Assembly: GCA_965248775.1 (NCBI GenBank) | Contig: OZ252150.1 | Location: 3,988,042-4,052,041, forward strand | Reading direction: 5' to 3' | DNA length: 64,000 nucleotides | Source of the DNA: Anaerolineales bacterium | Lineage (GTDB): Bacteria; Chloroflexota; Anaerolineae; Anaerolineales; JBHHUI01 | Shown here: positions 3,517 through 46,859 of the stretch, in pieces | How the letters are laid out: each line of letters opens with the position of its first letter | Position numbering within the stretch: the first letter of the stretch is position 1 | Notes under the pieces: generated by a model | Databases searched by the model: none | Seen by the model: only the letters and a program-made list of their open reading frames with translations | What the model was told of the DNA's origin: nothing | Program-made: the position numbers and the translations under genes

Positions 3517-4499
3517 ACACTTTCATCTCGGTCACTCGACGCGGTATCATGCGCGTCGACAAAAGCGCAGGCGAATGGAAAGTTGAGCACCTGCTGCAGG
3601 AACACGTCATGGCATGCCTCGCAGCGGACCCCCATAACTCGAATGTGATTTACGCCGGATCGCACGACGCAGGTGTATTGCGCTCCGAAGACCGCGGCCA
3701 AAAATGGTCACCTAGCGGGCTGCAAGACCACATGATCAAATCGCTCGCAGTCAGCCCACACGATCCAAATGTCATCTTCGCAGGCTCTAAGCCGGCAATC
3801 ATGTTCCGTTCCGACGATGGGGGAAAGAATTGGCGCGAATTGGATGGCTTTAGGCGCATACCCAACCGCTGGTGGTGGTTTTCGCCTGCTGAGCCACCCG
3901 ACCGCCGCCCGTACGTCATGGCGATCGCACCGTCTCCCACCGAGCCGGACGTTCTGCTCGCCGGAGTTGAGCTTGGCGGTGTTATGCGCAGTGAAGACGC
4001 CGGCGAAACCTGGTCGCGCCACCTGCGTGGTGCGCTGCGCGACTGTCATTCGCTCAAGTTTCACAAGACGAATGGCGACTGGATATACCAAGCCGGCGGC
4101 TCTGGGGGCGGCGCGTCGCTTAGCCGCGACGGCGGGCGCACCTGGCGCAAGGCCGGGAAGGGCCTGGCTAAGCACTACGGCATCGTGTGCGGGGCCGATC
4201 CCGTCAAGCCTGAAGTTTGGTATGTGTGTGTCGGGAGCAGCCCGTTCAACGCGTTCGGTGCCAATCCCAAAGTCTATCTGTATCGCGCCAGCGGCGGCGC
4301 AGGCTGGCAACCGATCGGCTGGCAATCACATCCGCTCCCGGCGACGCCCACTGCGCTCACAACGCAAACCGACGCGCCGGGGCATCTGTATGCCGGCCTG
4401 GCGAATGGCGATGTGATGCACTCCGTCGACTACGGCGACACGTGGAAGCAGCTGCCGTTCAATCTAAAGAGCATCTGGTTTCATTTGATTGCCATCTAA
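3513..4499 (+). CDS. BNR/Asp-box repeat beta-propeller protein (Ycf48/sortilin-like glycosidase-like fold)
   Basis: Repeated S-x-D-x-G-x-T/K-W motifs (SEDRGQKW, SDDGGKNW, SEDAGETW, SRDGGRTW, VDYGDTW). ATG at 3513 is in frame within the longer 3300 ORF. Confidence 0.7.
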   Translation: MNTFISVTRRGIMRVDKSAGEWKVEHLLQEHVMACLAADPHNSNVIYAGSHDAGVLRSEDRGQKWSPSGLQDHMIKSLAVSPHDPNVIFAGSKPAIMFRSDDGGKNWRELDGFRRIPNRWWWFSPAEPPDRRPYVMAIAPSPTEPDVLLAGVELGGVMRSEDAGETWSRHLRGALRDCHSLKFHKTNGDWIYQAGGSGGGASLSRDGGRTWRKAGKGLAKHYGIVCGADPVKPEVWYVCVGSSPFNAFGANPKVYLYRASGGAGWQPIGWQSHPLPATPTALTTQTDAPGHLYAGLANGDVMHSVDYGDTWKQLPFNLKSIWFHLIAI

Positions 4500-9951: not shown

Positions 9952-11892
9952 CAACTAAATCATAGTGTAAGCGTCGTTCCGACGACAAGTATCCGTATCT
10001 TTGCCAGGGCCTCAGTGCTCGCCTCGCTGGCGGCGGCGCTCCTTTCATTAGGACTCGCCACAATGCTTTACCGACGCAAATTTGCAGAACCAGCTGCGGC
10101 CGCGCTTTCTTTTTATCTGTTGATCTTTGGAATTGCGATGGCCGGCCCTTTGGAGGCAGCGAGCGTCTACTGGACCGGTGGCATGTCAGCCGCGCTAGCT
10201 TTGCAGACTATCCTGCTCGCAACCCCCACAGTTGCCTTATTGCTGCTGTTTCCGAGCGGTGCGTTTGTTCCGACCTGGACGCGCTGGGTATTCGCGCTGA
10301 CTATCCCATGGAACGTCTTATTGATCTTCGTACCCGTTTACAATTCGGTCGCGATCTCGCAGCAACCTGGATTATTTGTAGCTTACACCACCCTCTGGAT
10401 CTGTTTCATGGGCGTTGGCATCTACGCGCAGATATATCGTTATAGACGCGTCGCGGGCCTCGCCGAACGCCAGCAAACGCGTTGGGTGCTGTACGGTTTC
10501 GCTATCTGGTTTGGGATCATATTGCTAACGGCAGGCCCGTACTTCTATTTGGAGGGTCTACCACCGGACGCACCCAGCCCATGGTGGGTACCTGCAAGCG
10601 AACTCGTGTGGTTTCTGAGTCTGAACATCCTTCCGATCTGTCTCACAGTGGCGATCACGCGCTACCGATTGTGGGACATTGATCTCGTCGTCAACCGCAC
10701 ACTCGTCTACGGTGCATTGACCGCCGGCGTGGTCGTGCTCTACTTCGGCGGCGTCGTCGGACTGGGACTGTTGTTCCAACCTGCGAACAATCTACTCATC
10801 CCACTCCTCACAGCTGGTTTGGCGGCCGTGGTCTTCAACCCGTTGCGCGTTCGACTGCAAGGGACTATCAACCGTATGATGTATGGGGAGCGGGACGACC
10901 CGGTGGCAGTGTTGTCCCGCTTGAGCACGCAGCTGGAGATGACAGGTTCACCTACCGACGCTCTCAACAGTATTGTCGAGACCATCACTCAAGCACTCAA
11001 GTTACCCTATGCCGCCATCGAGTTAAGAGAAGGAACGAAACCGGCAGCAACTTTTGGTGTCCCGACGAATGAATTACAACGCTTTGCTCTTGTCCATCAG
11101 GGCGTAAATGTGGGCCAGATGGTCGTTGCTACCCGAGCAGCGCAGGAACCTTTCAATCCCAAAGACCTGCGCTTACTCAAGAATATGGCCCAGCAAGCTG
11201 GTGCGGCTGCCCATGCAGTCCGTCTGACAGCCGACCTGCAATACTCACGCGAAAGGCTCGTGACAGCCCGGGAAGAAGAACGTCGACGTATCCGGCGCGA
11301 TCTACACGACGGGCTGGGTCCCACGCTTGCGGTACAAGCCCTCAAACAGGAAGAAGCCCTCGAGGCGTTGTCCGACGACCCGGCTGGCGCCCGCATCTTA
11401 CTGGAGGAACTTAATACAGAGACACAGCAGCTGTTGACCGACGTGCGCCGCCTGGCTTACGATCTGCGCCCGCCGGCGTTGGATGAACTCGGGTTGGTCG
11501 CTGCCGTCCGAGAGCAGGCAATTCAAATGCTCCAGGGCGCGAATGGCTTACGAGTGGATGTGCATGCTCCGCCTGACCTACCCGAATTGCCGGCGGCCGT
11601 CGAAACGGCAGCCTATCGCATTGCGGTGGAGGCCATATCCAATGTAGGCCGCCATACCAAAGCACAAATTTGTACGGTGCGATTCAAACTTTCTAATGAA
11701 ATGTCTGCCTTACACTTCGAAGTTGAAGATGACGGCCAGGGAAATACACACGATCTACGGGCTGGAGTCGGGCTGACTTCGATGAAGGAACGCGCTGAAG
11801 AATTAGGTGGCCACTTGACCATTGAGAACAGCTCGCCGAGAGGTTTGATTGTCCGAGCGGTACTGCCTGTTCCGGTGCGAGGGAATGGATGA
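9952..11892 (+). pseudogene. sensor histidine kinase (multi-TM N-terminal domain, GAF-like region, HisKA_3 + HATPase_c), 3' part of the IS4-disrupted gene
   Basis: H-box RRDLHDGLGPTLA (NarX/HisKA_3 type) and C-terminal G-box (GVGLTSMKERAEELGG). It is followed by a LuxR-type response regulator. Confidence 0.8.
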
Positions 11893-12551
11893 GCATCATC
11901 CGGCTTCTGATCGCGGACGACCATACCCTCTTCCGGGAAGGACTGCATGCACTTCTCGATAAGGAAGCGGATGTACAAGTAGTGGGTGAAGCGCAATCCG
12001 GAGAAGAGGCCATTGCCATGGCCACAGCGCTTGAACCAGATGTAATCCTGATGGATATCCAAATGCCCGGCCAAAACGGCATTGAGGCCACGCGCCAGAT
12101 TGTGCGCGCCAATGAAAAAATTGGCGTGATCATCGTCACAATGTTGGAGGACGACAGTTCGGTATTTGCCGCAATGCGCGCCGGCGCTCGCGGCTACGTG
12201 CTCAAAGGAGCCAAGAAAGCGGAGATGCTACGCGCCATCCGGGCTGCAGCGGCTGGGGAGGCACTCTTTGGTCCCGGCATCGCAAACCGTCTGACATCAT
12301 TTTTCTCTCGTCTGGATTCCGACACGCTCCCCCCGGAACAACCTTTTCCGGAACTCACAGAGCGCGAGCACGAAGTACTCGACCTGATCGCGCAGGGGTG
12401 CAACAACGCCGCCATCGCCGAGCGACTGTCGCTGAGTCCCAAGACAGTCAGCAATCATATCTCGAATATCTACAACAAATTACAAGTAGCTGATCGGCTC
12501 GAAGCTTACCAGCAAGCCCGCGCAGCCGGGATGGGGACCGAAAGGGGGTAG
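11889..12551 (+). CDS. response regulator, NarL/FixJ (LuxR) family
   Basis: REC domain (DDH...D...ILMDIQMPG) plus C-terminal LuxR HTH (EREHEVLDLIAQGCNNAAIAERLSLSPKTVSNH). Overlaps the kinase stop (ATGA). Confidence 0.85.
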   Translation: MSIIRLLIADDHTLFREGLHALLDKEADVQVVGEAQSGEEAIAMATALEPDVILMDIQMPGQNGIEATRQIVRANEKIGVIIVTMLEDDSSVFAAMRAGARGYVLKGAKKAEMLRAIRAAAAGEALFGPGIANRLTSFFSRLDSDTLPPEQPFPELTEREHEVLDLIAQGCNNAAIAERLSLSPKTVSNHISNIYNKLQVADRLEAYQQARAAGMGTERG

Positions 12552-12672: not shown

Positions 12673-12993
12673 TCAACCGCGCCCACCCGCAAGCTGCGCT
12701 GCTTCCGGCGAACGCCGCAATGCCAGCATCGCCCAGATTCCCAGTGTTGGACCAATGGCCAGAATTGAAAATGCAAAACGCCAGCCGACAAGTTCAACAG
12801 CCGGTGGAATCAAGCGAATCGTGAAGAGAGTCAGCAGAAAACCGAGACTCGTTTGAAGCGTAAGCGCGCTCCCGATATATTCAGGCGGGCTGAGTTCGCT
12901 CACACATGCTGAGAACTGCGCCGAGTCAGCTGCTACTACGAATCCCCAGACCAGACTGACCGTGACGACTATCACAGGGTCGTATTGCATCAT
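12673..12993 (-). pseudogene. C-terminal fragment (last 2-3 TM helices) of an MFS transporter gene split by a transposon
   Basis: Hydrophobic MFS-like C-terminus. The matching N-terminal part is at 15111-16145 on the same strand. Confidence 0.6.
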
Positions 12994-13151
12994 GTAAGAA
13001 TCTTACCCTGAGAAGCCGTTGCCAGTCCAGTTTTTCCATCATTTTCAACCTGATTCGAGGTGTGACTTTTCGATCAATTGGTCAAGCCTCACCTAGTTTC
13101 CTCTGCTTCCGCTGGAGCTGCCTGACGCGCAGCCGAAGCCACGCAGGCGAG

Positions 13152-13212
13152 CACTGTCAACACCCCTTGTTGAGATGCGTGTGCAAAGAGCGTCAAGGGG
13201 TGTTGACGAAGC
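13152..13212. repeat. perfect 13-bp inverted repeat GTCAACACCCCTT / AAGGGGTGTTGAC separated by 26 bp
   Basis: Seen directly, in the non-coding end region of the rve element. Confidence 0.7.
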
Positions 13213-13317
13213 GCAGCCGCAGTGGCACGCTGCGGAGCGCAGGGGGCTCCAGCGAGAAGCAGGCGTTCTGTTTCCCGTTGGTGAGCCGAGATAAAAGCAG
13301 GCTGGTAGTCGACACAT

Positions 13318-15066
13318 TCATCCCGACCCAGTGCCTTCGTCACGACCCAGTGCCTTCGTCACGACCCAGTTCATTCGTCCTGACCCAGTACGTTCAGGAC
13401 TGGGTGCTGCTGCGGCGACATGATCCGCGAACTCCTCGTTCGCCTCGAGTTCATGTTCCGCTTGCTTGAGGCGCCAGTCATGTACTCGGCGCTGGAGCGT
13501 GCGTAACTGACCGTCACTGAATTTGCCGGGCTGGCCTTGTTGCAACCACTGGAAGAGCATCTTGGCAGTGAGGTAAGGCGTTTGCTCCAATTGCTGCTCA
13601 ACTTCGTCCCAGACGTCTTCGAATGGATCTTTTCGGGTACGCCACCAGCGCTTCACCTGGCCATAGCGCCCTTTGCGTTTCGTGCGCCGGTACATGCGCG
13701 CAGCACGCTCGAGGCGTCGGGCGGTACCGTTGTCGTTGGGCGGTGGTGCGTTGCCATTGGCCGTGCTGGTGATGGCGCGCGCGTTCGGCAGCACCGGTGC
13801 TTTGGCGGACGGGTATGCTGTTTCCGCCGGATGCACGGATCCATTCACATGCTGTGCGGTGGAGCTGTTGGGTGACGCGGTAGCGGACAGCGCGAGCGGG
13901 TTGACGTAGGCGTGCTGCCAGAATAGGTCCTGTAAAGATTCGATCTGCTGTAGCAGGTTCAAAGGGTCCAACTGGCGGTACTGTTCTCCAAGTGCGCGCC
14001 TGGTTTCATCCGAGATACTCTCAGTGGCCGTGACACGCTGATAGGGCGTCCGCGCCAAATCGTATTTGCGCATGATGCGGTTGCCGACGCGTTTTTTCTC
14101 CACCAGCTTGACAGAAGGCTGGAAAAAGTTCACGTAAAGCCGGAGTTGCGTGTACAAAGCACCCAAAACGCGGCAGGCTTCTATGCCAACGAAACGGTCG
14201 TAGCCGACGAACTTGCGCACAATGGAGCCGTTCTTCTGTTCGACATGGCACTGGTCGTTCTCCCGGTAAGGGCGTGAACGAGTGAAGGTGATGCCTTCGT
14301 CCTGGCAGTAGTGAAAGAGCAGATAATTCAAGAACTCGCCGCCGTTGTCGGTGTCCAACCCCAACAGGTCGAAGGGCAGCTGTGTACGGATGCGCCGGAT
14401 TGCGCGGAGCACGGTGTCCTGGCTGCGGTACAGCAGCGCGGCGAACTCCGTCCACCCGGTAGAAACATCCGTCATCACCAGCGTGTGCACAAACTGCCCA
14501 TCGATGCGATCGCCACAGTGGGCGACCAGGTCGGCTTCGATAAAGCCCGGCCCATCTTCGTTCCACTCTGCAAATGTGCGCACGGGCACATGATGCTTGA
14601 GCAGGCTACCCGGCCTGGTGGTGCTGCGGCCGTAGGGCAGTTGACCGCGCCGCACGTCTGCCAGGAGGCGGTCAACCGTCGCCGTGCTGATCGCAAGCAG
14701 GCGTTCACGCACATCGTCCGAGAGCGAGAGGTGACCGTGCCGCTCCAGGGCGGCCACGAACTCCGGCAGAAACGGCACTAGCCGTTTGGAGCAGATACGG
14801 TTGGCAGCTTCCCAGACCTCCACCAACGCCGCCTGCACCTCGGGCGTGTAGATTCGGGGCGACGGTTTCCGCGGCCGTCTCGCAGGTTGCGCTGCCTGGG
14901 CGTCATGATACTTGAGCAACGTGAGGGCGTATTTGCGGTGATAGCCGGTGGCAGCGGTTAATTCGTTGAGGATGGTTTGCTTCTCTTTCTTGGACGCCTG
15001 CTGGTAACGCGGCGCGGTGCTGGCCAGAAGTTCACGGCGTGATTGCAGACTCATGGGATGCCTCAT
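13318..15066 (-). CDS. DDE transposase with N-terminal HTH and rve integrase catalytic core (582 aa; IS481/ISNCY-like, family not resolved)
   Basis: DTDNGGEF and the downstream E of an rve DDE triad. A long basic C-terminal extension reads through a palindromic repeat (...GRMNWVVTKALGRDEGTGSG). Confidence 0.7.
   Translation of the reverse strand: MRHPMSLQSRRELLASTAPRYQQASKKEKQTILNELTAATGYHRKYALTLLKYHDAQAAQPARRPRKPSPRIYTPEVQAALVEVWEAANRICSKRLVPFLPEFVAALERHGHLSLSDDVRERLLAISTATVDRLLADVRRGQLPYGRSTTRPGSLLKHHVPVRTFAEWNEDGPGFIEADLVAHCGDRIDGQFVHTLVMTDVSTGWTEFAALLYRSQDTVLRAIRRIRTQLPFDLLGLDTDNGGEFLNYLLFHYCQDEGITFTRSRPYRENDQCHVEQKNGSIVRKFVGYDRFVGIEACRVLGALYTQLRLYVNFFQPSVKLVEKKRVGNRIMRKYDLARTPYQRVTATESISDETRRALGEQYRQLDPLNLLQQIESLQDLFWQHAYVNPLALSATASPNSSTAQHVNGSVHPAETAYPSAKAPVLPNARAITSTANGNAPPPNDNGTARRLERAARMYRRTKRKGRYGQVKRWWRTRKDPFEDVWDEVEQQLEQTPYLTAKMLFQWLQQGQPGKFSDGQLRTLQRRVHDWRLKQAEHELEANEEFADHVAAAAPSPERTGSGRMNWVVTKALGRDEGTGSG
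13321..13410. repeat. palindromic repeat family copy A: two tandem 19-bp units GACCCAGTGCCTTCGTCAC plus GACCCAGT...ACTGGGTG hairpins
   Basis: Shares the ACCCAGT-loop-ACTGGGT core with the copies at 32750, 33187, 33662 and 33845. Confidence 0.75.
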
Positions 15067-15110
15067 CGATCTCCTCCGAACGTCCGAACAACGGGAACAT
15101 TCGGTAAGGA

Positions 15111-16145
15111 TTAGCGTGAGTCAACGATCTTGTCAAAGTAAGGTTTTCGATGATGCAATGCGGGGTTAGCGCCAAATAAAAATCCTATCCCGAGTGCACA
15201 TAACCCGCTGATCGCCATACTGCCGATGGTCAAAGTTGTGCGGCCCATACGGTCGGCAAGCAGGCCGGCCAACAAGCTTCCCAATCCCCCGATTGCAATC
15301 ACTGCAAACGCAGCCACGGCAGCCCACGCGGGCGCAACACCCACTTGTTCAAAACTGGCAAGCAAGAACAGTGGTATCCAGGCCCACATGGCATAGAGTT
15401 CCCACATATGTCCAAGGTAACCAAAGTTCGCCAGCCGTATCCCGCGTTCAGCCAAAGCCCGGAATGCAAAGCGCGGATTGAAGCGGGCCGACTTTGTAAC
15501 GTACGGGCCCGCACGCACGCCAACAATTGCAATCAATCCGCCCAACAACGCCAGCCCACTGGCCGCAAGCACCACAGTACGCCAGGAAAAATCACCGAAA
15601 CCAGTGATGAGATGCGGTGCAGCACTTCCCACCGTCAGCGCGCCAACTAGCAAGCCAATCCCCAAACCCCGATCAGCTTGCGTCCAGGTGGCCACCAGTT
15701 TCATGCCGACCGGATACACACCTGCGAGCAACATGCCGGTTACAAATCGCAACACCAAAGCCGGAGGCAGGCTATCCACAAAGAGAGGAATGGCTGCATT
15801 GGCAAATGCTGCCGTGATCGCCGAAGCAGCAAAGAACCAGCGTGCTGGAATGATGTCCGCCAGATTGAACATAGCTGAGATCAACGTCCCGGCGACAAAT
15901 CCGATCTGTACGCTCATCGTGAGCCAGGTCTTGCCGCCATCACTCAGGCCCCACGCCTCCGTCAGGTCTGGCACAACCGCCGAAGCCGAGAACCACAGCG
16001 AGAATGAGAGCAACGCGGCAATCGCCAACAAGATCAAAGTTCGCCATTTTTTGCGCATACCAGGAAGTGTATGCGCGCTTGTAGATTCGCGTCGTAACGT
16101 GCGGCACGGAATGGCTGCTGGTTTGTAACGCAAAGTATATGGCAA
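15111..16145 (-). pseudogene. N-terminal ~300-codon part of the MFS transporter gene (likely true start MRKKWRT near 16058), truncated by the rve element
   Basis: About 10 TM helices and an MFS-like loop motif. The final residues HHRKPYFDKIVDSR are read from element DNA. Confidence 0.6.
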
Positions 16146-16160: not shown

Positions 16161-17578
16161 GTGGGTCACTTGGCACGGACATCGCCATAAAATGAATCGG
16201 GCTTTAGAATTGGCTGCATCCTTGATCACATAGGTGATGAAATGAGCCGACGCAAGAAAGACCCGCTTCGTGAACTGACGAAGGAAGAGCGGGAATGGCT
16301 GGAACGTATTGGCCATTCGCAGACGGAGCCTGCTAGTCATGTCGTTCGCGCCCGACAGATTCTGTTCGTGGCGGATGGGAACAATTACACCGAGGCCGCG
16401 CGCTTGTCGGGTCGGAAGTCCGGTGACGCGGTCTCGCAGTTGGTCAGCCGTTTCAACCGGGAAGGCTTGGCGGCCCTCGAGCCAAAGCATGGGGGAGGAC
16501 CTCAGGTGACGTACGGGGCAGAAGAGCGCGAGCGCATTCTGCAGGAAGTGCGCCGACCACCCATTCCGGAGACAGACGGGACGGCGACGTGGTCGCTGCA
16601 AACTTTGCAGCAACGGTTGCGCTCGATGCCGGATGGCTTGCCCGAGGTGAGCACCTATACCATCTGGACGGTGTTGCAGGAAGCCGGCTACAGCTGGCAG
16701 CAGTCGCGCAGCTGGTGCGAAACCGGCCAAGCAACACGCAAGCGAAAGGGCGGCACTGTTATTGTGACCGACCCAGATACCGAGGCGAAAAAAACTTGAT
16801 CGAAAGCGCCTACCATACTGGCGAAACGCTCGGCCTGGCCGTCTGGACCCAAGATGAAGCCGGACCTTATCAGACCAAGCCATATGTGGGGGGCAGCTGG
16901 CAGCCCGAGGCGCAGCCGGCCAAACAGCCGCACGAGTACATCCGCGACGGAACGGCAAAATTGCTAACACTATTTCACCCGGCTTCTGGACAAGTGCGCG
17001 TGAAAGGCGTCACGCGTACTACCAATGCTATTTTGCATCCATGGCTCAAGGACGAACTGTTGGCTATCCTGCAGGCATTGCCGGCCAAACCCCAACTCGA
17101 CGTTGAAGCCAATCGCCTGCTATGGGAAAGCTGGCAAGCCGGATTATCGTTGCCCATCACCTTGTCGCAAGAACTTCCAGCTCTGCGCATGCTACTCATC
17201 TGGGATAACCTCAAAGGCCATTACACTCCGGAGATGGTTCTGTGGTTGTTCGAACACGGCATTATGCCGCTGTATACACCGTTGGGCGGCTCGTGGTTGA
17301 ACATGGCTGAATCGATGCAGCGAATTCTCGTTCGGCGTGGCCTGTCCGGCCAGTATCCGCAAACACCTGATCAATTCATTGCCTTGTTACAAGGCGTCGC
17401 GCAGGGTTGGAACCAGAACCCCACTCCGTTTGAATGGGGCGGCAAACGTAAGGCACGTCGCCAACGCAGTCGGCAGCGGCGGCACATGCTCGGTGGTTCC
17501 GGCGCGTACACTCGGCATCCGATCCGCCGCCGCTCAACGCTGATCCAACAATGGCAATCAGCATGCCAAGTGACCCAC
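16161..17578 (+). mobile_element. IS630-family insertion sequence (1418 bp). 15-bp perfect terminal IRs GTGGGTCACTTGGCA at 16161-16175 and 17564-17578. Flanking TA at 16159-16160 and 17579-17580.
   Basis: TA target duplication and IR structure typical of IS630/Tc1-mariner elements; seen directly. Confidence 0.85.
16242..16799 (+). CDS. IS630 transposase N-terminal (HTH) part, ORF A
   Basis: Helix-turn-helix region. It ends just after an A7 run at 16788-16794. Confidence 0.75.
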
Positions 17579-17581
17579 TAG
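16787..17581 (+). CDS. IS630 transposase DDE (DDE_3) part, ORF B, in the -1 frame relative to ORF A
   Basis: Conserved IS630 DDE blocks ([28 protein letters not shown]). A -1 shift at the A7 tract would fuse ORF A and ORF B. Confidence 0.75.
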
Positions 17582-17679
17582 CTATTATCCATTCGCTGGC
17601 AGCCATTGGCCATTCGTCGTTTGACTCTCGACCGCAACCATATTAGATTCCTTTCATCCCAACAGCGACAGGTGATCCA

Positions 17680-19716
17680 ATGAGTGAGCAAGAAAAACTT
17701 GAAGTCAGCGAAGCCGAAATTGCCGTCCACTGGCAAGAGGAAGGATACTTCCACCCCTCTGAAGAATTTAAGGCCCAAGCCAATATGACCGACGCGGGCA
17801 TCTATGACCGCTTCGGACTCGATAACTTTCCCGATTGCTTCAAAGAATATGCTGACCTGCTAAGTTGGCATAAAGACTGGGACACCACGCTCGACAGTAG
17901 CAATGCGCCGAGTTTTAAATGGTTCGTCGGTGGTGAGATCAACGCCAGCTATAACTGTATCGATCGGCACCTTGAGAAAAACAAGAATAAAGCAGCCATC
18001 ATCTGGGTCCCGGAACCGGAGGACGAGCAACACATTGTTCTGACGTACCAAGAGCTTTACGTGCGCGTGAACGAATTCGCAGCGCTGCTCCAGGATTTTG
18101 CCCGTCTCTCGGCAGGAGACCGCGTCACAATCCATATGCCCATGGTGCCGGAGCTCCCGATCGCAATGCTCGCCTGCGCCCGCTTAGGCGTCATCCATTC
18201 GGTTGTATTTGGTGGTTTCAGCGGCAAAGCCTGTGGCGAACGCGCGGCCGACTCCGGCAGCAACGTGCTCATTTACATGGATGCCTACTATCGCAACGGA
18301 GCACTACTCGACCACAAAGTAAAAGCCGACGAAGCAGTAAAGGCAGCGGCAGCCGAAGGACAGGTGATCGATAAAGTACTCATATGGCAACGCTATCCCG
18401 GCAAGAACTCAGCCGAGACGCCCATGCAAGCTGGTCGCGACTTCTTCGTCAACGATTTGCTCATGGACTATCGTGGCCGGCGTGTTGATGCGGTACCCAT
18501 GCCCGCCGAAGCACCCCTGTTTCTAATGTACACCAGCGGTACAACTGGTCGGCCTAAAGGCTGCCAGCACGGCACCGGTGGCTATCTGGCCTACGCAGCT
18601 GGCACATCAAAATATATTCAGGACATCCATCCCGAGGATGTCTATTGGTGTATGGCCGACATCGGTTGGATCACAGGTCACTCCTACATTGTTTATGGGC
18701 CATTGGTTTTGGCAGCCACGAGTGTGATGTATGAAGGCGTACCAGGCTTCCCGGATCCGGGCCGTGCTTGGCGTATTGCCGAACGCTTGAATGTGAACAT
18801 CTTCCACACTGCGCCGACAACTGTGCGCATGCTGCGCAAGGCCGGGCCGGATGAGCCGCAGAAATACAACTTCGAGTTCAAACACATGACCACTGTCGGC
18901 GAACCGATCGAGCCGCAAGTATGGAAATGGTATTACGAGGTGATCGGCAAGGGCAAAGCAGCCATTGTTGATACTTGGTGGCAAACGGAGACCGGCGGCT
19001 TCTTGTGCAGCACCATGCCCGCATTGCACGCCATGAAACCCGGCAGCGCCGGCCCGGCGGTGCCGGGCATCCACGCTGTCATTTACGACGAAGAAGGGCA
19101 GGAGATTCCGCCAGGCTCCAATAAGGCGGGAAATATTTGTATCCGGAATCCCTGGCCGGGTCAGTTCCAGACCATCTGGGGTGATCACGAACGTTTCGTC
19201 GCTACTTACTTTACAAAGTACAACAAAGACCCAAACAGCACCGATTGGCGCGACTGGCCCTATTTCCCCGGAGACGCGGCCATGCAGTCCGCCGATGGCT
19301 ATTACCGTATCCTTGGTCGGGTGGATGATGTGATCAATGTGGCCGGGCATCGGCTTGGCACGAAGGAATTGGAATCGGCGTGCCTGGTTGTCGATCAGAT
19401 CGCCGAGGCTGCCGTTGTCCCTGTTGCCGACGAAGTAAAAGGGCGCGTGCCCGATATTTACGTCTCTCTTAAGCTGGGGATTGAACCGGGCCCGGAGATA
19501 GCAGCCGCCGTGATCAGCGAGATTGAAGAATCGATTGGAAAAATCGCTCGGCCCAAGAATGTCTGGATCGTGCCCGACATGCCTAAAACACGCTCCGGCA
19601 AGATCATGCGCCGCGTGTTGGCCTCGATTTCTAATGGCACGGACGTGGGGGATGTAACAACCCTAGCCAATCCGGAAATTGTTGAACAAGTAAAGGAAAT
19701 GGTTCAGAACAGCTAA
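17680..19716 (+). CDS. acs: acetyl-CoA synthetase (AMP-forming)
   Basis: Near-colinear with Acs motifs YTSGTTGRPKG, TWWQTETGG, RSGKIMRR. 678 aa. Confidence 0.9.
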   Translation: MSEQEKLEVSEAEIAVHWQEEGYFHPSEEFKAQANMTDAGIYDRFGLDNFPDCFKEYADLLSWHKDWDTTLDSSNAPSFKWFVGGEINASYNCIDRHLEKNKNKAAIIWVPEPEDEQHIVLTYQELYVRVNEFAALLQDFARLSAGDRVTIHMPMVPELPIAMLACARLGVIHSVVFGGFSGKACGERAADSGSNVLIYMDAYYRNGALLDHKVKADEAVKAAAAEGQVIDKVLIWQRYPGKNSAETPMQAGRDFFVNDLLMDYRGRRVDAVPMPAEAPLFLMYTSGTTGRPKGCQHGTGGYLAYAAGTSKYIQDIHPEDVYWCMADIGWITGHSYIVYGPLVLAATSVMYEGVPGFPDPGRAWRIAERLNVNIFHTAPTTVRMLRKAGPDEPQKYNFEFKHMTTVGEPIEPQVWKWYYEVIGKGKAAIVDTWWQTETGGFLCSTMPALHAMKPGSAGPAVPGIHAVIYDEEGQEIPPGSNKAGNICIRNPWPGQFQTIWGDHERFVATYFTKYNKDPNSTDWRDWPYFPGDAAMQSADGYYRILGRVDDVINVAGHRLGTKELESACLVVDQIAEAAVVPVADEVKGRVPDIYVSLKLGIEPGPEIAAAVISEIEESIGKIARPKNVWIVPDMPKTRSGKIMRRVLASISNGTDVGDVTTLANPEIVEQVKEMVQNS

Positions 19717-32707: not shown

Positions 32708-32749
32708 CCCGAGAAATCCTTAGCGGGGCGCAAGCCCCCGGATTTATCC

Positions 32750-32787
32750 GTCACGACCCAGTTCATTCGTGACTGGGTGACTGGGTG
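32750..32787. repeat. palindromic repeat copy B (GTCACGACCCAGTTCATTCGTGACTGGGTGACTGGGTG) just upstream of tnpB
   Basis: Imperfect palindrome; same core as copies A, C, D and E. Confidence 0.75.
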
Positions 32788-33186
32788 GGGACAGCCCCGC
32801 CGATTGAAACAGATGATTCGAGTACACATACTTATGTCGAAGATAAGCCGCGAACAGGCTGACGCGCTCAATCAAGAGAGTGGTCGTATCTATACCAGCG
32901 TAATGGTCGAACACTGGCGCGTCTACAAGAAAGGTCGCGGTCATTGGCTGTCACGTGGGGCTGCCGAGAGATACAACGATTATCTCGGTGGCCCAACTAG
33001 CCTGCACGCTCACAGCCGAGACGCGGCCCAACAAGGATTCTATAAAGCTTGCAAGGTTGTAAAAGCACAACGCAAAATGGGACTGAACATACGTTATCCC
33101 TGGCGACGCAAGTTCTACCGGACAACGATCTGGAAGAACACCGGTATCTCACTCAAGAGCAATATGCTAGGGCTTGCCCTGGCGCG

Positions 33187-33296
33187 CGGCCACCCCGTCC
33201 AGTCCTGTCCGGGACTGGGTGAGCCGATCATCATGACCCAGTGCATTCACCCAGTCACGAATGAACTGGGTCGTGATGACTGGGCGCTCAAGCTAC
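33187..33296 (+). repeat. palindromic element copy C (~110 bp) inserted in-frame in tnpB (encodes ...GHPVQSCPGLGEPIIMTQCIHPVTNELGRDDWA)
   Basis: Contains CCAGTCC-TGTCCG-GGACTGG and ACCCAGT...ACTGGGT hairpins. It is near-identical, in inverse orientation, to copy E (34-nt match CGGCCACCCCGTCCAGTCCTGTCCGGGACTG). Confidence 0.7.
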
Positions 33297-33661
33297 CGCG
33301 CAATCTGGCAAGGTTCGAGAACGAGAATTTCAAAGAAGTCCGGCTGGTCTACAACAAGAGCTGCCGCCGTTACTACTGGCATGTCGTCATTGAAGATGCT
33401 CGCCAGCCCGGAAAGCCAACTGGGAACGGCATCGCCGGGATCGACCTGGGCGAGATACATCCGGTCGCCATCACGGACGGGACGAACGGCCTGGTCATTT
33501 CCTGCCGCGAAATGCGAGCAACAAAGCAGTACACGAGCAAACGGCTGGCAACTTTGAAGCGCCTGCAAAGCAGCAAACAAAAATACTCTCGGCGCTGGTG
33601 GCGAATACAGCGCCGCAGCAATCGGTTCCTTGCGCAACAGGCAAGTCGAACCCGAGACATG

Positions 33662-33747
33662 GAACACCCAGTCATCACGACCCAGTTCATTCGTCATGAC
33701 CCAGTACATTCATGACTGGGTGACTGGGTGAATGCACTGGGTCATGA
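33662..33747. repeat. palindromic element copy D (double hairpin) inserted in tnpB; introduces the only in-frame stop (TGA 33713-33715)
   Basis: CACCCAGTCATCACGACCCAGTTCATTCGTCATGACCCAGTACATTCATGACTGGGTGACTGGGTGAATGCACTGGGTCATGA. Confidence 0.7.
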
Positions 33748-33844
33748 CAAGGTCAGTCGCGCAGTGATCGACTGGTGCCTTGAAAACGGTATCGCTGAGA
33801 TAGCTATCGGCAATGTTAGAGATATTGCAGACGGCAAACGCCTT

Positions 33845-33936
33845 CATCGGAAGAGTCAACACCCAGTCACAAACGCACTGGGTCGTGAAAAACTCTCGAA
33901 CTGGGCGCACACAGTCCCGGACAGGACTGGACGGGG
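33845..33936 (-). repeat. palindromic element copy E (inverse orientation of copy C) inserted in-frame in tnpB
   Basis: The reverse complement matches copy C over the CGGCCACCCCGTCCAGTCCTGTCCGGGACTG block and the ACGACCCAGTGC core. Confidence 0.7.
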
Positions 33937-34431
33937 TGGCCGAATGCGCAAATATATCAGCTACAAAGCCGAGGCCGAAGGTATCGCCGTTTTCGACAAG
34001 GTGGACGAACGCTATACCAGCCAAACATGCCCTGAATGCGGCCAGCGGCACAAGCCACGCGGACGGGTTTACAAATGCCCCCATTGCGGTTTCGTCGGCG
34101 TGCGTGATATTGTCGGCGGAGCCAATATCAAGAGCAGGCATGTTCATGGCGAACTAGCGAAAGTCGCAGCACCTTGTCCAAAGTATCGTAAACCTTTTCC
34201 CCGTCCAGAACCAGACGGGACTGGGCAAAGAGGCTTGCGTAGTCGCGCGGACACCGCGAACTTGGCTTGGGATTGAATAATCCCAGGAAGCCCCCGGCTA
34301 CCCCCCGGTGGGCAGTGTCACGAGAAACCAATATTGGTCATTGGCTCAGCCGGGTTTGAGATCATTGCTGGTGCGCAGTATTTAGTTGCCGGTATTCAGT
34401 GATCAAGCAGCAGGTTACCGATTACTGAAAA

Positions 34432-35395: not shown

Positions 35396-36729
35396 TAGGA
35401 ATGAGAATTAAATAACTTGTGCAAATGGGAGAGCGCGGTAATTCCATCGGGGCAAGAAATCATCAAAGATAATGCGCATGTTGTCCCTGAAATCTGTGGC
35501 TACTTTACGACCGGTTTCGTAGACCTGGTCAATAACATGGACAAAAGCTTTCAGTCCGGTCTTGGTGCTGGTTTTTTCCATCAGTTCTTTGACGAGTTTG
35601 CGGCTGGTGAAGATCACGCCTTGGCAAGCGCGGGTAACATGCGGGAAGAAACGGTGTTCGCTGGGGTTGTATTTCGAGCAATAGGGTGGATAGTGAGCAA
35701 TGCGAATTTCGACCCCGATTTCATCGGCCAGTGCTTGCAAGTCTTGCTTGAAGATGTAGTAGCGGGAACTGTTACTCCCGCCGCCATCGCAAAGCACGAG
35801 AATAGAAGTGGCGTTGGGATAGTGGTAGTGGCCGTATGTGTACCACCAATGGCGAAAGCTATCGCAAGCGAATTCACTGGTATCATGACTGCCGCCGAGT
35901 TGGATGTAGCCGACATTGAGACGCAAGTCGTAGAGACTGTGAGGAATGCTGACCCCAGCAGCATAGCTGTTGAAATCATGGTCATAAGTTTGCAGTTCTT
36001 CCAGGGTGTACAAATGTCCGTCTCGGTAGAAATTGCCCAGATATTCCTTTTTCTTGCTGTCCATGCTGACAATGGGATTGCCCGCCGCTTCGAATTCGGT
36101 CTTGAGCCGCGTGATGTTCTCAAATTGCTCGTTGCGGTTTTCAATCTCGGCCTTCAAACCGAGTTTCTTTTGCGCTTTTCGGCGGCGATAGTTGTGCTTC
36201 TGCAGCAACTTGCGCACCACATATTTGCTGACCACGATGTCGTGCTCGGCCCGCAACGCCGCAACAATCTCGCCCGGGGTCAGGTTCGTCCAGCGCACCC
36301 TCTCGTCCATCGGGTCACCGGCTGTGTGCTCGCGCAACACTGCCAGGAACTTCTCAGCAAGTTGCGCCCCCCATGTGACGTAGTACGGTTTGCGTCCGCC
36401 GCCTGGCTTCCGAATGCGCTGCTCCACTTCGCCCTTGGGCAAGCCACTGACTTCGCGGGCGCCTTTGCTCACCGTGTTGCGACTGCACCCCAACACCCGC
36501 GCAATGTAACTCCGTCCGCCGTGTCCAAATCTCAAGGCTTCGAAACCAGCAAAGCGACGCCCATCTTTCTCGTTCAAGCTGTTGTAAAAGCGGCGCATCA
36601 TTTCTTCATGTTCGGGCGCATAGGGTTTCATCATGGCCTCCTGGCTAGTGTTCTGATGAAGCCAAGAGAATATCACTGCTTGCATCCGTTGTGAACCAAC
36701 TGCCCAAATTATTTAATTCTCGTTCCTTA
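35396..36729 (-). mobile_element. ISAzo13-family (ISNCY group) insertion sequence, ~1334 bp, with ~20-bp imperfect terminal IRs (TAGGAATGAGAATTAAATAA / TTATTTAATTCTCGTTCCTTA)
   Basis: IRs seen directly at 35396-35415 and 36709-36729. A single ISAzo13-type transposase ORF lies inside. Confidence 0.7.
35408..36685 (-). CDS. ISAzo13-family transposase (Rhodopirellula-type DDE; likely start MMKPYAPE)
   Basis: Characteristic N-terminal HTH (YIARVLGCSRNTVSKG) and DDE region (VSMDSKKKE...LCDGGGSNSSRYY...PPYCSKYNPSEHR). Confidence 0.75.
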   Translation of the reverse strand: MQAVIFSWLHQNTSQEAMMKPYAPEHEEMMRRFYNSLNEKDGRRFAGFEALRFGHGGRSYIARVLGCSRNTVSKGAREVSGLPKGEVEQRIRKPGGGRKPYYVTWGAQLAEKFLAVLREHTAGDPMDERVRWTNLTPGEIVAALRAEHDIVVSKYVVRKLLQKHNYRRRKAQKKLGLKAEIENRNEQFENITRLKTEFEAAGNPIVSMDSKKKEYLGNFYRDGHLYTLEELQTYDHDFNSYAAGVSIPHSLYDLRLNVGYIQLGGSHDTSEFACDSFRHWWYTYGHYHYPNATSILVLCDGGGSNSSRYYIFKQDLQALADEIGVEIRIAHYPPYCSKYNPSEHRFFPHVTRACQGVIFTSRKLVKELMEKTSTKTGLKAFVHVIDQVYETGRKVATDFRDNMRIIFDDFLPRWNYRALPFAQVI

Positions 36730-43131: not shown

Positions 43132-44460
43132 TTGACTGCCGATCATCCCTTCCGATTCTCGCGCGATGGCCTGCTTGGATTACCGGCATCCCCCACGCTG
43201 GTTATCAACGATCGCATCAAAGAAATGATGGCCGCCGGTCAGGAGGTCTTTCATCTCGGCTTTGGTGAGTCGCGCTTCCCCGTGCATCCACTGCTGGCGC
43301 GCGCATTGCAAGATAACGTTCACAAGCGCAGCTACCTGCCGGCGCTGGGCATTCCTGAACTGAGAGCGGCCATCGCCGCATATTATTCCAACAAATTTGA
43401 TCGTCCAATCTCTCCAGAACAGGTCGTCATCGGTCCAGGTAGCAAAGCTTTGCTTTTCGCGCTCATGCAGGCGCTGGATGCGGACATCGTGCTACCGACT
43501 CCGGCTTGGGTATCCTATGGAGCGCAGGCGCAGTTGGCCGGACGCCCGATACTGCAAGCGCCAATGGACCCCGCGGCGGATTATGCGCTGGATGTCGACC
43601 GTCTTGCTCACGCCATTGATCAGGCCAACACAGAATGGCGCCAGCCCGACCTGCTACTACTCAACACACCCAACAACCCGACCGGTACTGTAATGTCGGC
43701 TGAGACAGCAAAAGCAGCAGCTGAGTTTGCACGCGAACACAAGATGGTGATCTTCAGCGACGAGATTTACAGCCTCGTCACACACCCGGATGTGGCATTT
43801 GCCTCACCGGCGCAATATTACCCTGAGGGCACGATTGTATTCGGTGGACTGAGCAAACATATGTCGTTGGGAGGCTGGCGATTTGGGCTGGCGATTCTTC
43901 CCTCCGGGGAAGCAGGGACTCAGCTCGCACGGGCATTGCAGGCCATTGCCGGCTGCACCTGGTCGTGTGTCGCGGGGCCGGTCCAGTATGCTGCTTTGGA
44001 GGCTTATCGCGGCAGTCCCGAAATCGAAAACTATATCGAAGCCTCCACTCGCCTGCACAGCGCGCGCACAAACTATCTCTACGAAGCATTTGAGGAATTT
44101 GGCCTGACATGCCCCGCGCCACAGGGAGGCTTTTATTTGTATCCATCCTTCGCGCGCTGGCGGGAGCCATTGGCAGCCCGCGATGTGAATACCTGCCAGG
44201 ACCTCTCCATGCATCTGCTCGATCGTTATCAAATTGCCATTCTGCCCGGCTCCTCCTTTGGGGACAACCCGCACGCCTTGGCATTGCGCGTCTCCACCAG
44301 CTATCTCGATGCCGAGACGGACGAACAAGCGACAACACTCATGGAAGCCTTTCAGAAAAATGGTAGCCCCGAGAATTTTATTCAAGACCACAACCCGCGC
44401 CTACGCCAGTTAACCGAGCGTATCGCCGGTTTTATTGGTGAACTTGAAGGTGAACTATGA
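43132..44460 (+). CDS. PLP-dependent aminotransferase, class I/II
   Basis: Fold-type I aminotransferase. Conserved NPTG (LNTPNNPTGTV) and the lysine region (GGLSKHMSLGGWRFG). Confidence 0.8.
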   Translation: MTADHPFRFSRDGLLGLPASPTLVINDRIKEMMAAGQEVFHLGFGESRFPVHPLLARALQDNVHKRSYLPALGIPELRAAIAAYYSNKFDRPISPEQVVIGPGSKALLFALMQALDADIVLPTPAWVSYGAQAQLAGRPILQAPMDPAADYALDVDRLAHAIDQANTEWRQPDLLLLNTPNNPTGTVMSAETAKAAAEFAREHKMVIFSDEIYSLVTHPDVAFASPAQYYPEGTIVFGGLSKHMSLGGWRFGLAILPSGEAGTQLARALQAIAGCTWSCVAGPVQYAALEAYRGSPEIENYIEASTRLHSARTNYLYEAFEEFGLTCPAPQGGFYLYPSFARWREPLAARDVNTCQDLSMHLLDRYQIAILPGSSFGDNPHALALRVSTSYLDAETDEQATTLMEAFQKNGSPENFIQDHNPRLRQLTERIAGFIGELEGEL

Positions 44461-45705
44461 ACAACCGCGAAGTTGTAATTGTTGATGCTGTGCGCAGCCC
44501 GATTGGACGTGTGGGTGGCGTGCTTGCATCCGTGCGCCCCGATGATCTTTTGGCAGATGTCTTAGAGGCCCTTATCGAGCGCACTGGTGTCGACCCCGCA
44601 CTTGTCGAAGACGTATACGCTGGCTGCGGCAATCAGGCCGGTGAGGACAACCGAGACGTAGCCCGTATGGCACTACTGTTGGCTGGGTTTCCCAAGGAAG
44701 TCGGTGGAGTCACCGTCAATCGCAATTGCTCGTCTGGTTTGGAAGCCGTCAACCAGGCTGCGAAATCTATTCTGGTGGGCGAGGCAGACATCTTTATCGG
44801 TGCTGGTGTGGAGAGCATGAGTCGTGCGCCGTGGTCGCTGCCCAAGCCGGAGAAGGCCTATGCGGTCGGCCAGCCCAAACTATACGATACGACTGTGGGC
44901 TGGCGTTACGAGAATCCACGCATGGATGCCCTGTATCCAATTATTAGTCTGGGTGAGACAGCCGAAAACATCGCCGAAGAGATGAACATCACGCGCGAGG
45001 AACAGGATGCTTTCTCCGTGGAGAGTCATCAGCGGGCGGTCAACGCAATCAATGCTGGAAGGTTTCGGGATGAAATCGTCCCCATTCTTGTTGCGCAACG
45101 CAAAGGGGATGCGATCGTTGTCGATACTGACGAACATCCACGTTATCGACGCGACAACGGCCACTACGAACTCGATACCAGTATGGAGAAAATGGCGAAA
45201 TTGCGTCCATCCTTCCGAGAAGGTGGCACCGTCACGGCTGCTAGTTCGAGTGGTATCAACGATGGCGCAGCAGCGCTCATGCTGATGACCCGCCAGAAGG
45301 CCGACGAACTGGGACTCAAACCCATGGCGCGCTGGCTCGGCGGTGGCTGGCGTTGACCCCGGCGTGATGGGTTTTGGACCTGTTCCCGCAACGAAGAAGC
45401 TGCTCAAGCGACTTGACCTGAGCGTGGCTGACATTGGTCTCGTCGAGATTAACGAGGCCTTTGCAGCCCAGACGATTGCCGTGATGCACTTGCTCGATCT
45501 AAGCCCGGAGATCACCAATGTCAATGGTGGCGCCATAGCATTGGGGCATCCGTTAGGCTGTTCCGGCGCGTGCATCCTGACCACACTGTTGCACGAAATG
45601 AAGCGCCGCGCACCGGACGAGCAAGAGCCTTACCGTGGTCTGGCAACATTGTGTGTCGGGGTTGGGCAGGGCGTCTCGACGCTTGTGGAGTTCATTGGAG
45701 ATTAG
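44457..45705 (+). pseudogene. acetyl-CoA C-acetyltransferase (thiolase) with a frameshift near 45320-45345
   Basis: N-terminal thiolase (active-site Cys region NRNCSSGLEA). The C-terminal block ([18 protein letters not shown]) is in the other frame. The shift lies in the GC-rich stretch gcgctggctcggcggtggctggcg. Confidence 0.75.
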
Positions 45706-45759
45706 AGATGGGTGACTGGAGATGAATCTCCCATCCCAAGCTCCTATTCGGAATCATAC

Positions 45760-46155
45760 ATGAATCAACAGCGACCCTTATCCGGCATCCGCGTAATTGG
45801 ACTCGAACAGTACATGAGCGCGCCCTACTGCAGCATGTTACTTGCAGATGCCGGAGCCGAGGTGATTAAGATCGAACGTCCCGGCAGCGGCGATCCGCGA
45901 CGGGCAATTCCCCCCTTTGCGGAAGGCAAGAACGGCAACCGCAAAGCGGGTGGCTTCATGGCTTACAACCGCAACAAGAAGAGCCTGGCGCTCAACCTGC
46001 GCAGCGACTCTGGAAAAGAAGTGCTCAGAAAACTGATTGAGAAATCGGATGTGGTCGTTGAGAACTTGCGTCCAGGCGCAATGGACAAGCTGGGCCTGGG
46101 CTACAAAGCGCTGCAAGAACTCAACCCGCGCCTGATTTACGCTGCCATCTCAGCG
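45760..46155 (+). pseudogene. CoA-transferase family III (CaiB/BaiF) gene, N-terminal ~130 codons only
   Basis: LSGIRVIGLEQYMSAPYCSMLLADAGAEVIKIERPGSGD is the family N-terminus. Homology stops after ...RLIYAAIS (~46152). Confidence 0.7.
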
Positions 46156-46859
46156 CGGGAGACGCACAAGTGCTGCAGAGTGTTTTCGATCCGGTCACTG
46201 GAGCACTCACCCCCGCAGACGAATTGTGGCTGATTGATAAAACCGGGCAACTCAAAACATACACTAGCAATGGAGAGATTGCGTTGGTGGATATGCCGGC
46301 TGCAACACGCGCTGACTGGACGATCAGTGTTACCCGCATGCCCGACGAGACCATGTGGGTCAGTAGCGCGACGAGCGTGAGCGTTCACAACCCGGATTCT
46401 GGTCACTGGCAGGTTTACGATTCCATCCAAACCGGTCTGCAAGGCCCGATTGTTGAACTCGAGCGCGCGCCTGACGGAACTGTTTGGGGCTTACAAACGC
46501 ATACATTCGAAGAACCTATCTGGCGAAGTTGGGGCGTCAGCGCTTTGCAACCCACCGCAGATGGTGACTGGATGAACATTAATATGCGCCAATTAACCGG
46601 CCTCGAAGCGCCCACCACTCCCGATGCTCTCGCCACAGACGGTTATGGTCGTCTGTGGTTTATTGCTGAATCTTGTTATCTCAGCAAACGCTATATTGGA
46701 ATTCTAAATCCTGACGGCACTCTTGTCGAACTGGTGACCATCGGCGAACTAATCAACGAGCCGTATGGCATATTACCGGATGGTGCTGGTGGCGTTTTTC
46801 TGTACTACGGTAAAGAGGAGCCGTTGCGCCGTTGGATGCCGGCCTCACAAAAACAGTAG
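46150..46859 (+). pseudogene. C-terminal fragment of a beta-propeller (two-component-regulator-propeller/Y_Y_Y-like) protein, joined to the CaiB stump
   Basis: No start codon and no N-terminal domain. The frame is open only from 46062. Repeated D-G-x-hWh-style propeller blades. Confidence 0.5.

Follow-up and report, generated by a model that had tools for sequence, protein, structure and literature searches.

The tnpB locus and its inserts

We analysed a stretch of 64,000 nt from an Anaerolineales bacterium (assembly GCA_965248775.1, contig OZ252150.1, positions 3,988,042 to 4,052,041), called the window below. Near its middle lies a TnpB-only insertion sequence (IS) of the IS200/IS605 family, whose tnpB gene carries nine copies of a 27-nt mini-repeat at six sites; together they add 81 codons and one stop. 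The repeat unit comes in two forms, type A (TCAYGACCCAGTNCATTCRTGACTGGG) and type B (CCCCGTCCAGNNCCNGNCGGGACTGGG). The features of the IS are listed here in window coordinates, with ^ marking an insertion point or junction.

32709-34321, plus strand: TnpB-only IS200/IS605-family IS, 1613 nt, with the target TGAC in front and GTGTCAC at its end
32716-32748, plus strand: the IS's own left-end hairpin, AAATCC...GGGGC-GCAA-GCCCC...GGATTT (DNA fold), identical in all three copies of the IS, two of which lie on a related contig, L034
32751-32785, plus strand: left-end insert, made up of the type A unit TCACGACCCAGTTCATTCGTGACTGGG in full (32751-32777) followed by TGACTGGG, an 8-nt orphan module (32778-32785)
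32813-34276, plus strand: tnpB frame from MIRVHILMSK, 487 codons with the inserts and 406 aa without them
33193-33219, plus strand: Ins1, type B unit, forward, CCCCGTCCAGTCCTGTCCGGGACTGGG, 27 nt, peptide PVQSCPGLG, at GGCCA^TGAGCC
33231-33284, plus strand: Ins2, a 54-nt composite of two type A units, the outer one forward (33231-33249 and 33277-33284), the other (33250-33276) inverted within the loop of the first
33667-33747, plus strand: Ins3, 81 nt, a nest of three type A units immediately behind the conserved RDxEH motif
33862-33888, minus strand: Ins4, type A unit, reverse, 27 nt, on the plus strand part of HPVTNALGR; its removal restores the native RKSQ^QKLSNW
33910-33936, minus strand: Ins5, type B unit, reverse, 27 nt, peptide TVPDRTGRG, at GCGCA^TGGCC
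34199-34225, plus strand: Ins6, type B-like unit CCCCGTCCAGAACCAGACGGGACTGGG, 27 nt, peptide PRPEPDGTG
34268-34321, plus strand: right-end hairpins of the IS, TGGGATT-GAAT-AATCCCA and GCCCCCGG..CCGGTGGGC, with the terminal GTCAC (DNA fold), intact in the window

A preliminary description of this DNA had read the whole tnpB locus as one frame with a single TGA, and our data agree: 32777-34276 is one open frame, and its sole in-frame TGA lies at 33713-33715. The assignment to tnpB is confirmed by the Pfam domains OrfB_IS605 (PF01385) and Cas12f1-like_TNB (PF07282), one in each half of the product, and the PDB matches of the protein are TnpB and Cas12f. We found 1361 TnpB homologues of 400-440 aa, the best of them 62% identical over aligned residues. 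The peptide HPVTNELGRDDWA reported in the description is present, and the further repeat copy it placed at the 5' end of tnpB is also there, upstream of the start codon (32751-32787). The closest intact homologue (on contig L028) has no unit in its left end.

The number and the nature of the inserts had to be revised. The description had proposed three inserts, named C, D and E, of a MITE-like element of about 90-105 bp. Alignment against 14 intact TnpB homologues gives six sites, seen as gaps of 9, 18, 27, 9, 9 and 9 codons, that is, 27, 54, 81, 27, 27 and 27 nt, and the left end of the IS holds a seventh. The unit is 27 nt long, and any longer block consists of two or three units, one nested in the loop of another. 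Block C is Ins1 plus Ins2, split by native codons (EPII), with a spacer of 11 native nt (part of a native His codon plus EPI). Block E is Ins4 plus Ins5, again split by native codons (EKLSNWAH), with a spacer of 21 native nt (KLSNWA plus part of a native His codon). Block D does bring the only stop, which sits in the inner unit of Ins3 (TGA, 33713-33715), but it is not a single element, as it consists of an outer unit in reverse (33667-33674 and 33729-33747), a middle unit forward (33675-33693 and 33721-33728) and an inner unit forward (33694-33720). Ins6 had been missed. The gap at Ins1 is nine codons in 14/14 homologues, and Ins5 is 95% complementary to Ins1 over 39 nt.

Deleting the 243 nt of inserted DNA leaves an open reading frame (ORF) of 1221 nt and 406 aa starting at ATG 32813, close to the 407 codons estimated earlier. 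It is 62% identical to the homologue P0001 and gap-free at the five internal sites. GIDLGE, RDMEH and RDIVGGANI, which we take to hold the catalytic D/E/D, are kept in this ORF, as is CxxC..CxxC, presumably the zinc ligands; the RDxEH motif directly before Ins3 presumably carries the RuvC catalytic Glu.

The extra segments might be regarded as native, lineage-specific insertions of a TnpB subfamily rather than as foreign DNA. The frame is kept, and in the AlphaFold model of the insert-bearing protein, whose mean pLDDT is low (58.9), all inserts are predicted to lie in low-confidence coil, Ins1/Ins2 and Ins4/Ins5 between predicted secondary-structure elements. However, none of the 14 closest homologues has any of the six segments, which repeat each other as DNA in both orientations; the same DNA is found in unrelated genes, and a sister copy of the IS has an empty Ins2 site. 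We consider this explanation already refuted and give it practically no weight.

The boundaries of the IS follow from an empty site, ATAGCTGAC^GAGAAACCAAT, in four related contigs (L030, 88-90% identity; L031-L033, 92-95% identity), where the Band_7 gene is directly followed by the pseudouridine-5'-phosphate glycosidase gene without the IS between them. The junction is ambiguous by 2 nt (AC), and there is no target duplication beyond this ambiguity. The two further copies on L034 lie at other TGAC sites and end in GTCAC, so that TGAC in front and GTCAC at the end are found in three independent copies (3/3). The IS matches the TnpB-only (IS1341-like) members of IS200/IS605 in having no terminal inverted repeats, no target duplication, a fixed short target and subterminal hairpins at both ends, and it behaves as an element of this kind moved by TnpA in trans. 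It appears to have arrived recently at this chromosomal site. The aconitase and PsuG of the window have near-identical relatives only in metagenomes; the next ones (~70% or below) are from metagenome-assembled genomes of Anaerolineae and other Chloroflexota, by which the host is an uncultured member of this phylum.

The 27-nt unit and its nests

The repeats are far more frequent than chance would give. The window has 24 occurrences of ACCCAGT where 4.65 are expected, a count that 0/100 shuffles reached; 15 of the 24 are in 32756-33883 and five in 13326-13405. Type B follows the pattern CCCCGTCCAG(N)CC(N)G(N)CGGGACTGGG. Both types have the same order of parts, i.e. the left arm of stem 2, CCAGT, a short loop, the right arm of stem 2 and ACTGG(G), and the unit ends in ACTGGG. 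It carries two interleaved stems (a-b-a'-b'), one constant (CCCAGT/ACTGGG) and one covarying (TCxyGA/TCy'x'GA), of 6-7 bp with loops of 9-10 nt. The two stems are mutually exclusive and form alternative hairpins because there are no connecting loops between the arms. An H-type pseudoknot was rejected on geometry, since both connecting loops would be 0 nt.

Stem 2 is supported by covariation among 29 distinct type A copies. Pair 7-24 is AU in 18, CG in 7 and GU in 2 copies, and pair 8-23 is UA in 16 and CG in 12. Overall 90% of cells are paired, slid controls have 20-50% paired, and the observed covariation score was reached by 0/500 shuffles. Folding of the repeat as DNA, suggested in the preliminary description, gave a modest result for single units (z ~ -2), while the inverted dimer Ins2 forms one long hairpin (-18.6 kcal/mol, z -5.65). 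Rfam returned no match at gathering thresholds, and a permissive search gave chance miRNA-like hairpin matches only.

The units are poor in stops. Type B has none in 6/6 frames, which includes all six frames of Ins1, and type A is open in 4/6 frames (TCACGA variant) or 2/6 frames (TCATGA variant). The nine units in tnpB brought a single stop in 81 codons because each is nine codons long and has few stops, and in general a gene can gather many units and stay open since the 27-nt mode keeps the frame and the units rarely carry stops. Five of the six type A units are in open frames, for which the chance is ~0.03, and the frames of nested units are not independent; selection for open frames is suggestive only.

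Nesting follows a simple rule. The spacings from arm to arm are mainly 19/8 and 14/13, both of which add up to 27, so one unit goes into another at a fixed point of its loop. The self-nest sites are TTCG^TGACTGG in the same orientation and GCATTCA^TGACTGG in the inverted one. A second cluster of the window has a different composition:

13321-13404, plus strand: 84 nt, three 19-nt left modules and one complete unit

An rve-type transposase ORF (13318-15066, minus strand; Pfam rve) takes its last 28 codons from this array, and its stop comes immediately after. The rve-type IS (window 12673-16145) splits an MFS transporter gene into 15111-16145 and 12673-12993.

A called 165-aa protein on another contig (P0365; L035, 323-820) is wholly translated nested units, and nests of units are likely prone to mis-annotation as genes. 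TnpB or transposase 'pseudogenes' and odd-length variants annotated in these genomes may be repeat-invaded genes.

Mobility, targets and mechanism

A search with the type A pattern, in which the covarying columns of stem 2 were left free, found 26 metagenome loci, apparently mostly deep-ocean judging by the contig names. All-against-all comparison of these loci revealed at least 10 filled/empty polymorphisms between related IS copies, some of them nested in other units. The difference is 27 nt in about six distinct events, 26 nt in a single event recognised from both alleles, and 25 nt and 28 nt in one event each, with a junction microhomology of 0-2 nt. A unit nearly identical to Ins6 is one of these polymorphisms, in an IS30 gene (L005:843). 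Two other accounts of the junctions and units were tried and rejected: a 2-nt target duplication (GT) fails at L002:1892 and at Ins2, where the junctions are unambiguous, and an origin as excision footprints from terminal inverted repeats does not fit a unit that is no simple palindrome (a-b-a'-b').

The two IS copies on L034, which was reached through a peptide search with Ins1 and Ins2, lie at 9751-11990 (copy a) and 16380-18560 (copy b). Ins1, the right part of Ins5, and Ins6 are common to all three IS copies, Ins6 being identical in them, which dates these inserts before the most recent transpositions of the IS. At position 17215 of copy b lies the exact empty site of Ins2, GAGCCGATCA^CGCTCAAG, which fixes the unit boundaries unambiguously. 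In copy a, the Ins1 loop holds a further 27-nt unit, CACAGTGCCGTGCACACTGCATCGGTA, and Ins2 contains 53 additional nt. Large nests occupy three places in each of the two L034 copies: the left end, the loop of the first right-end hairpin, and the second of these hairpins. Each copy has also lost the middle of tnpB. The nest at the same left-end position differs in content among the three copies and is much larger in a and b; of the three, the window copy shows the least invasion. The L034 copies represent progressive IS decay by repeat accretion. Three IS copies at different stages of invasion, exact empty sites, a base-exact boundary, one covarying stem and a measurable preference for hairpin loops and CA^TG steps make this an unusually clear record, which shows how a length of nine codons enables the colonisation of coding sequence. 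It also shows that an IS can be both vehicle and graveyard for the units.

Two observations on the other metagenome loci are worth giving. One site in an IS30-type transposase gene (L017 708, L022 1194, L025 132) has the stem variants TCACGA/TCGTGA and TCATGA/TCATGA in copies that are 83% identical, reflecting either repeated insertion at one site or compensatory evolution after one insertion. The same site is empty in a fourth copy (L005), and the insert-bearing 337-aa ORF is intact. At L025 131-155, and at L007 680-702 and L018 1039-1061, differing left flanks and the same right flank are joined exactly at the unit, by either ectopic recombination at 27-nt repeats or chimeric metagenome assembly.

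With the junction register fixed by the empty sites, the targets show a preference. Ins1, Ins5, L002:2112 and the inverted self-nest have CA^TG. The other junctions are CA^CG (Ins2), TG^TG (Ins3), TT^TG (Ins4), CG^TG (same-orientation self-nest), CA^CA (L005:843) and TT^CA (Ins6), and either half of CA^TG is far above the expectation of 1/16 at insertion points. The insertion point lies in a hairpin loop with a stem of at least 4 bp in 8/16 events against a background of 0.24, and with a stem of at least 5 bp in 6/16 events against 0.10. Examples are TGAGC-CGATCA^C-GCTCA (Ins2; as a target sequence, TGAGCCGATCA^CGCTCA), AGAGT-CAACA^AAA-ACTCT (Ins4) and CAAGCGC-A^CAAGATT-GCGCTTG (L005).

We propose, with a probability of roughly 70%, that the IS has been colonised by very small (~27-nt) non-autonomous mobile repeats which are mobilised on folded single-stranded DNA by a trans-acting enzyme. 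Because of the covarying stem, the constant CCAGT/ACTGG, the loop targets and the REPIN-like dimers, we infer that copying proceeds through folded single-stranded DNA and that the enzyme is HUH/Y1-like, RAYT-like or another structure-specific one. Anatomy, the 27-nt length at this locus, mobility, nesting, stem covariation and the location in IS DNA are observed directly. Units are copied to new sites, favouring hairpin loops and CA^TG-like steps. The loop of an existing unit is one such target, giving the 54- and 81-nt nests and the REPIN-like inverted dimers. Units within the IS are multiplied and carried by the IS itself, as hitch-hikers, and some are common to its three independently inserted copies. 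Over time the nests would grow and the IS decay, with the window copy at an early stage and the L034 copies at late stages.

Several results weigh against this proposal. The window has no Y1 or RAYT gene by Pfam on its ORFs and by tblastn probes, no mobilising enzyme was identified, and RAYT gave no match in about 200 kb examined. The ends of the unit are unlike the TGAC/GTCAC cleavage sites of the IS. The length is not strictly 27, as units of 25, 26 and 28 nt exist elsewhere, and frame preservation follows from the modal length and is no absolute rule. The loop preference is suggestive, being only moderately significant and partly driven by nested events. Units are also found in intergenic DNA (a few, on L034 and L035) and in ordinary genes (L020), and the method of collecting loci could have made IS DNA look more enriched than it is. 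Clean nested insertion also leaves the orphan modules unexplained, i.e. the 8-nt TGACTGGG at 32778-32785 and the three 19-nt modules at 13321-13377. The 8-nt modules read TGACTG(G/T)G after a complete unit and recur in L034 copy b, at about 17205, which suggests that slippage or deletion also reshapes nests.

These same modules would also fit a model with no transposition at all, only local replication slippage or template switching on hairpins, with spread between IS copies by gene conversion. The 19-nt tandem array lacks matching right parts, the 8-nt modules look like duplications, and a duplication of ~60 nt flanks a nest on L034. This nest (at about 14740-14990) splits a different tnpB, which lies beside a Y1_Tnp gene, and the duplicated flank is native coding sequence. 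Against slippage, near-identical 27-nt units recur at sites, in genes and on contigs that have no relation to each other, their empty alleles are clean, and one gene has six sites with units in both orientations. A first copy at a repeat-free site cannot arise by slippage, and the clean filled/empty pairs at Ins2 and L017:702 contradict its need for an adjoining partial copy. We therefore hold it to be highly improbable as the general explanation.

The preliminary description had suggested an origin from the end hairpins of IS200/IS605 elements. The units would then be PATE-like derivatives of this IS, mobilised in trans by a Y1 TnpA. This family does transpose as single-stranded DNA and uses hairpins, one unit does lie in the left end (32751-32777), and three copies at three TGAC sites show that a TnpA was active in the lineage. 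A check for an IS200/IS605 tnpA gave a divided answer, with none in the window and a Y1_Tnp gene (Pfam E 1.6e-25) on L034 at 15297-15780, about 600 nt from another copy of the window IS. The left-end and right-end hairpins of the IS are nevertheless unrelated in sequence to the units, and the 27-nt units have no separate left-end-like and right-end-like ends. Their flanks (CA^..^TG) differ from the TGAC^ and GTCAC^ sites, so the TGAC/GTCAC rule is not followed, and they are spread over intergenic DNA and about eleven IS families with no relation to one another. The unit in the left end was itself inserted there; nest content at this position varies among the IS copies, and the closest homologue has no unit in its left end. 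The derivation from end hairpins is therefore improbable in our view. The Y1_Tnp (IS200-like) gene region on L034 (13863-15780) has an internal tandem duplication of ~120 nt.

Under our proposal of trans-mobilised repeats, a Y1 HUH enzyme is the obvious candidate class. Di Nocera et al. 2013 (PMC3733652) likewise leave the enzyme of the CGTC-tagged repeats open. The 27-nt oligonucleotides with defined targets would be suitable substrates for finding the enzyme that moves REP-like elements without RAYT.

A third explanation is retro-insertion through an RNA intermediate, which Elhai and colleagues reportedly proposed in 2008 for the cyanobacterial SDR elements. Most copies are in transposase genes that are transcribed, the stem covariation would fit folded RNA equally well, and one unrelated contig (L028) has a fragment of a reverse transcriptase gene. 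No reverse transcriptase was found in the window or near the IS copies, however, the units stand in both orientations relative to the host gene, and nothing in our data needs RNA. We regard this route as very unlikely.

Habitat and relation to known mini-repeats

All units of the window lie in two of its about seven IS elements, and the remainder of the 64 kb has none. The transposase genes free of mini-repeats include an IS1-like (72-860), an IS4 (8536-9942) and an IS630-like one (16589-17581). No unit was found in ~43 kb of syntenic housekeeping DNA of related strains, nor among the small indels between the window and the housekeeping DNA of L029 and L031. The metagenome host genes are mostly transposases, i.e. 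rve/IS3, IS30, IS110, IS256/Mutator, Tn3, IS91 (Y2), IS630 (DDE_3), IS4 and ISAzo13, and a minority of the units are intergenic or in ordinary genes (L003, L020, L021, L024). Clusters of units on L034 lie in IS91, in IS3 and in three tnpB elements. A genome scan with the type A pattern returned a single chance match (L001, a GC-rich coding sequence of Solirubrobacteraceae); viral contigs gave 0 matches for the type A and type B patterns, and a plasmid collection had no match to Ins2. IS DNA is the main habitat of the units but not the sole one.

Hitch-hiking, together with weak selection against hits in IS DNA, is the simplest explanation of the excess there. A bolder reading is that the units are hyperparasites of mobile DNA, or part of a host process disabling it, with a mechanistic bias towards IS elements. 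They would home to the hairpin loops exposed when an IS is single-stranded or transposing, fill it and inactivate it, and the size of nine codons would let a unit ride in transposases that are still functional. If true, few known site- or structure-specific mobile elements would be as small, and the IS bias would go beyond selection and hitch-hiking. We consider this reading possible and rather doubtful.

In our proposal the units are ultra-small mobile repeats similar to REP and SDR elements, and the phenomenon has precedents. Like the REP/REPIN-RAYT systems, they are short (20-40 nt for REPs) imperfect palindromes in many dispersed copies, non-autonomous and presumably handled as folded single-stranded DNA, and the inverted dimers of both fold as one long hairpin, as Ins2 does. 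Unlike REPs, they show no 5' GT[AG]G (GTAG or GTGG) tag in the alignment of 29 unit copies and have two interleaved stems (a-b-a'-b') rather than a single stem-loop. REPs are extragenic, whereas the units are mainly within IS and coding sequence and nest in themselves at fixed loop positions.

The CGTC-tagged REPs, which include Rickettsia RPE-4/RPE-6 and Neisseria dRS3, are also close in size. As far as the sections of Di Nocera et al. 2013 (PMC3733652) on these repeats go, they consist of a tag of 4, a stem of 8, a loop of 4, a stem of 8 and a tail of 3, which makes 27 nt; they lie inside genes in R. conorii and O. terrae; intragenic in-frame copies encode roughly 9-30 residues; they occur in five phyla, with Chloroflexi named only among the GTAG hosts; and no dedicated transposase is known. 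Our units share the size of ~27 nt and the in-frame intragenic copies with them as described there. Among the 29 type A copies, CGTC stands in front of 14 and CATC in front of 5, and this CGTC is followed by AT. In the units the TC of CGTC is base-paired, as part of the covarying stem, and by the empty site the CG falls outside the mobile 27 nt. The units also lack the single 8-9-bp stem starting with AT, the 4-5-nt loop and the 3-nt CCA tail given in that account. Membership in the GTAG family fails on the tag and the stem-loop, and membership in the CGTC family on stem, loop and tail; the CGTC tag itself gives a mixed picture.

The preliminary description had likened the invasion of tnpB to the Rickettsia RPEs, and this comparison was apt: copies and inversions of a small palindromic repeat have invaded the gene in frame, with a behaviour like that of RPEs and also of intragenic REPs. 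As with RPE-1, palindromic repeats stand in frame in protein-coding genes, add a peptide and keep the ORF. RPE-1 differs in its size of ~100-150 bp and its location in housekeeping genes of an obligate intracellular bacterium, compared with 27-nt, nesting units mainly in IS genes. PATEs and MITEs are like the units in being non-autonomous, hairpin-rich and found alongside IS200/IS605-family elements. The units, however, have no IS-derived left or right ends, no terminal inverted repeats and no target-site duplication; they are three to ten times smaller, and their ends are unrelated to the host IS.

In behaviour the units appear to resemble most closely the SDR elements of cyanobacteria, beside REP/REPIN, CGTC-tagged REPs and RPEs. 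SDRs of Nostoc and relatives are reportedly 21-27 nt long, nest in themselves, show compensatory changes and are often found inside other small mobile elements; they are said to be argued to be the smallest mobile elements and to be confined to a cyanobacterial subgroup. By this definition the units share the size, the nested self-insertion and the compensatory changes in a predicted hairpin. The unit sequences are probably unrelated, and the 27-nt in-frame colonisation of transposases and the CCCAGT/ACTGGG stem are not known as features of SDRs. Literature searches returned no description of this unit family, nor of REP/SDR-like mini-repeats of this kind in Chloroflexota. The features that set this family apart are the two interleaved hairpins, the length of nine codons per unit and how heavily IS elements of marine Chloroflexota are colonised. 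If our proposal is true, the ultra-small mobile repeats (REP, CGTC-REP, SDR) extend to this group.

The strain comparisons yielded some minor observations. An ISAzo13-family IS at window 35397-36725 (a 425-aa DDE_Tnp_ISAZ013 transposase, minus strand) is a second strain-specific insertion, which L030-L033 lack and where their flanks are contiguous. The thiolase and CoA-transferase genes at window 44457-46859 are truncated or frameshifted; in L029 they are intact (417 and 412 aa), and they are missing from L031, which makes this a variable region. L029 has at 4203, corresponding to window 57117, an additional palindromic block of 42 nt, GC-rich (GACCCCGTCTCCCAGCCGCGGCTGGACGTGGAGCCGGGGCTG), close to the 3' end of a gene. 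This block shows no relation to the units and may be another small in-frame repeat family.

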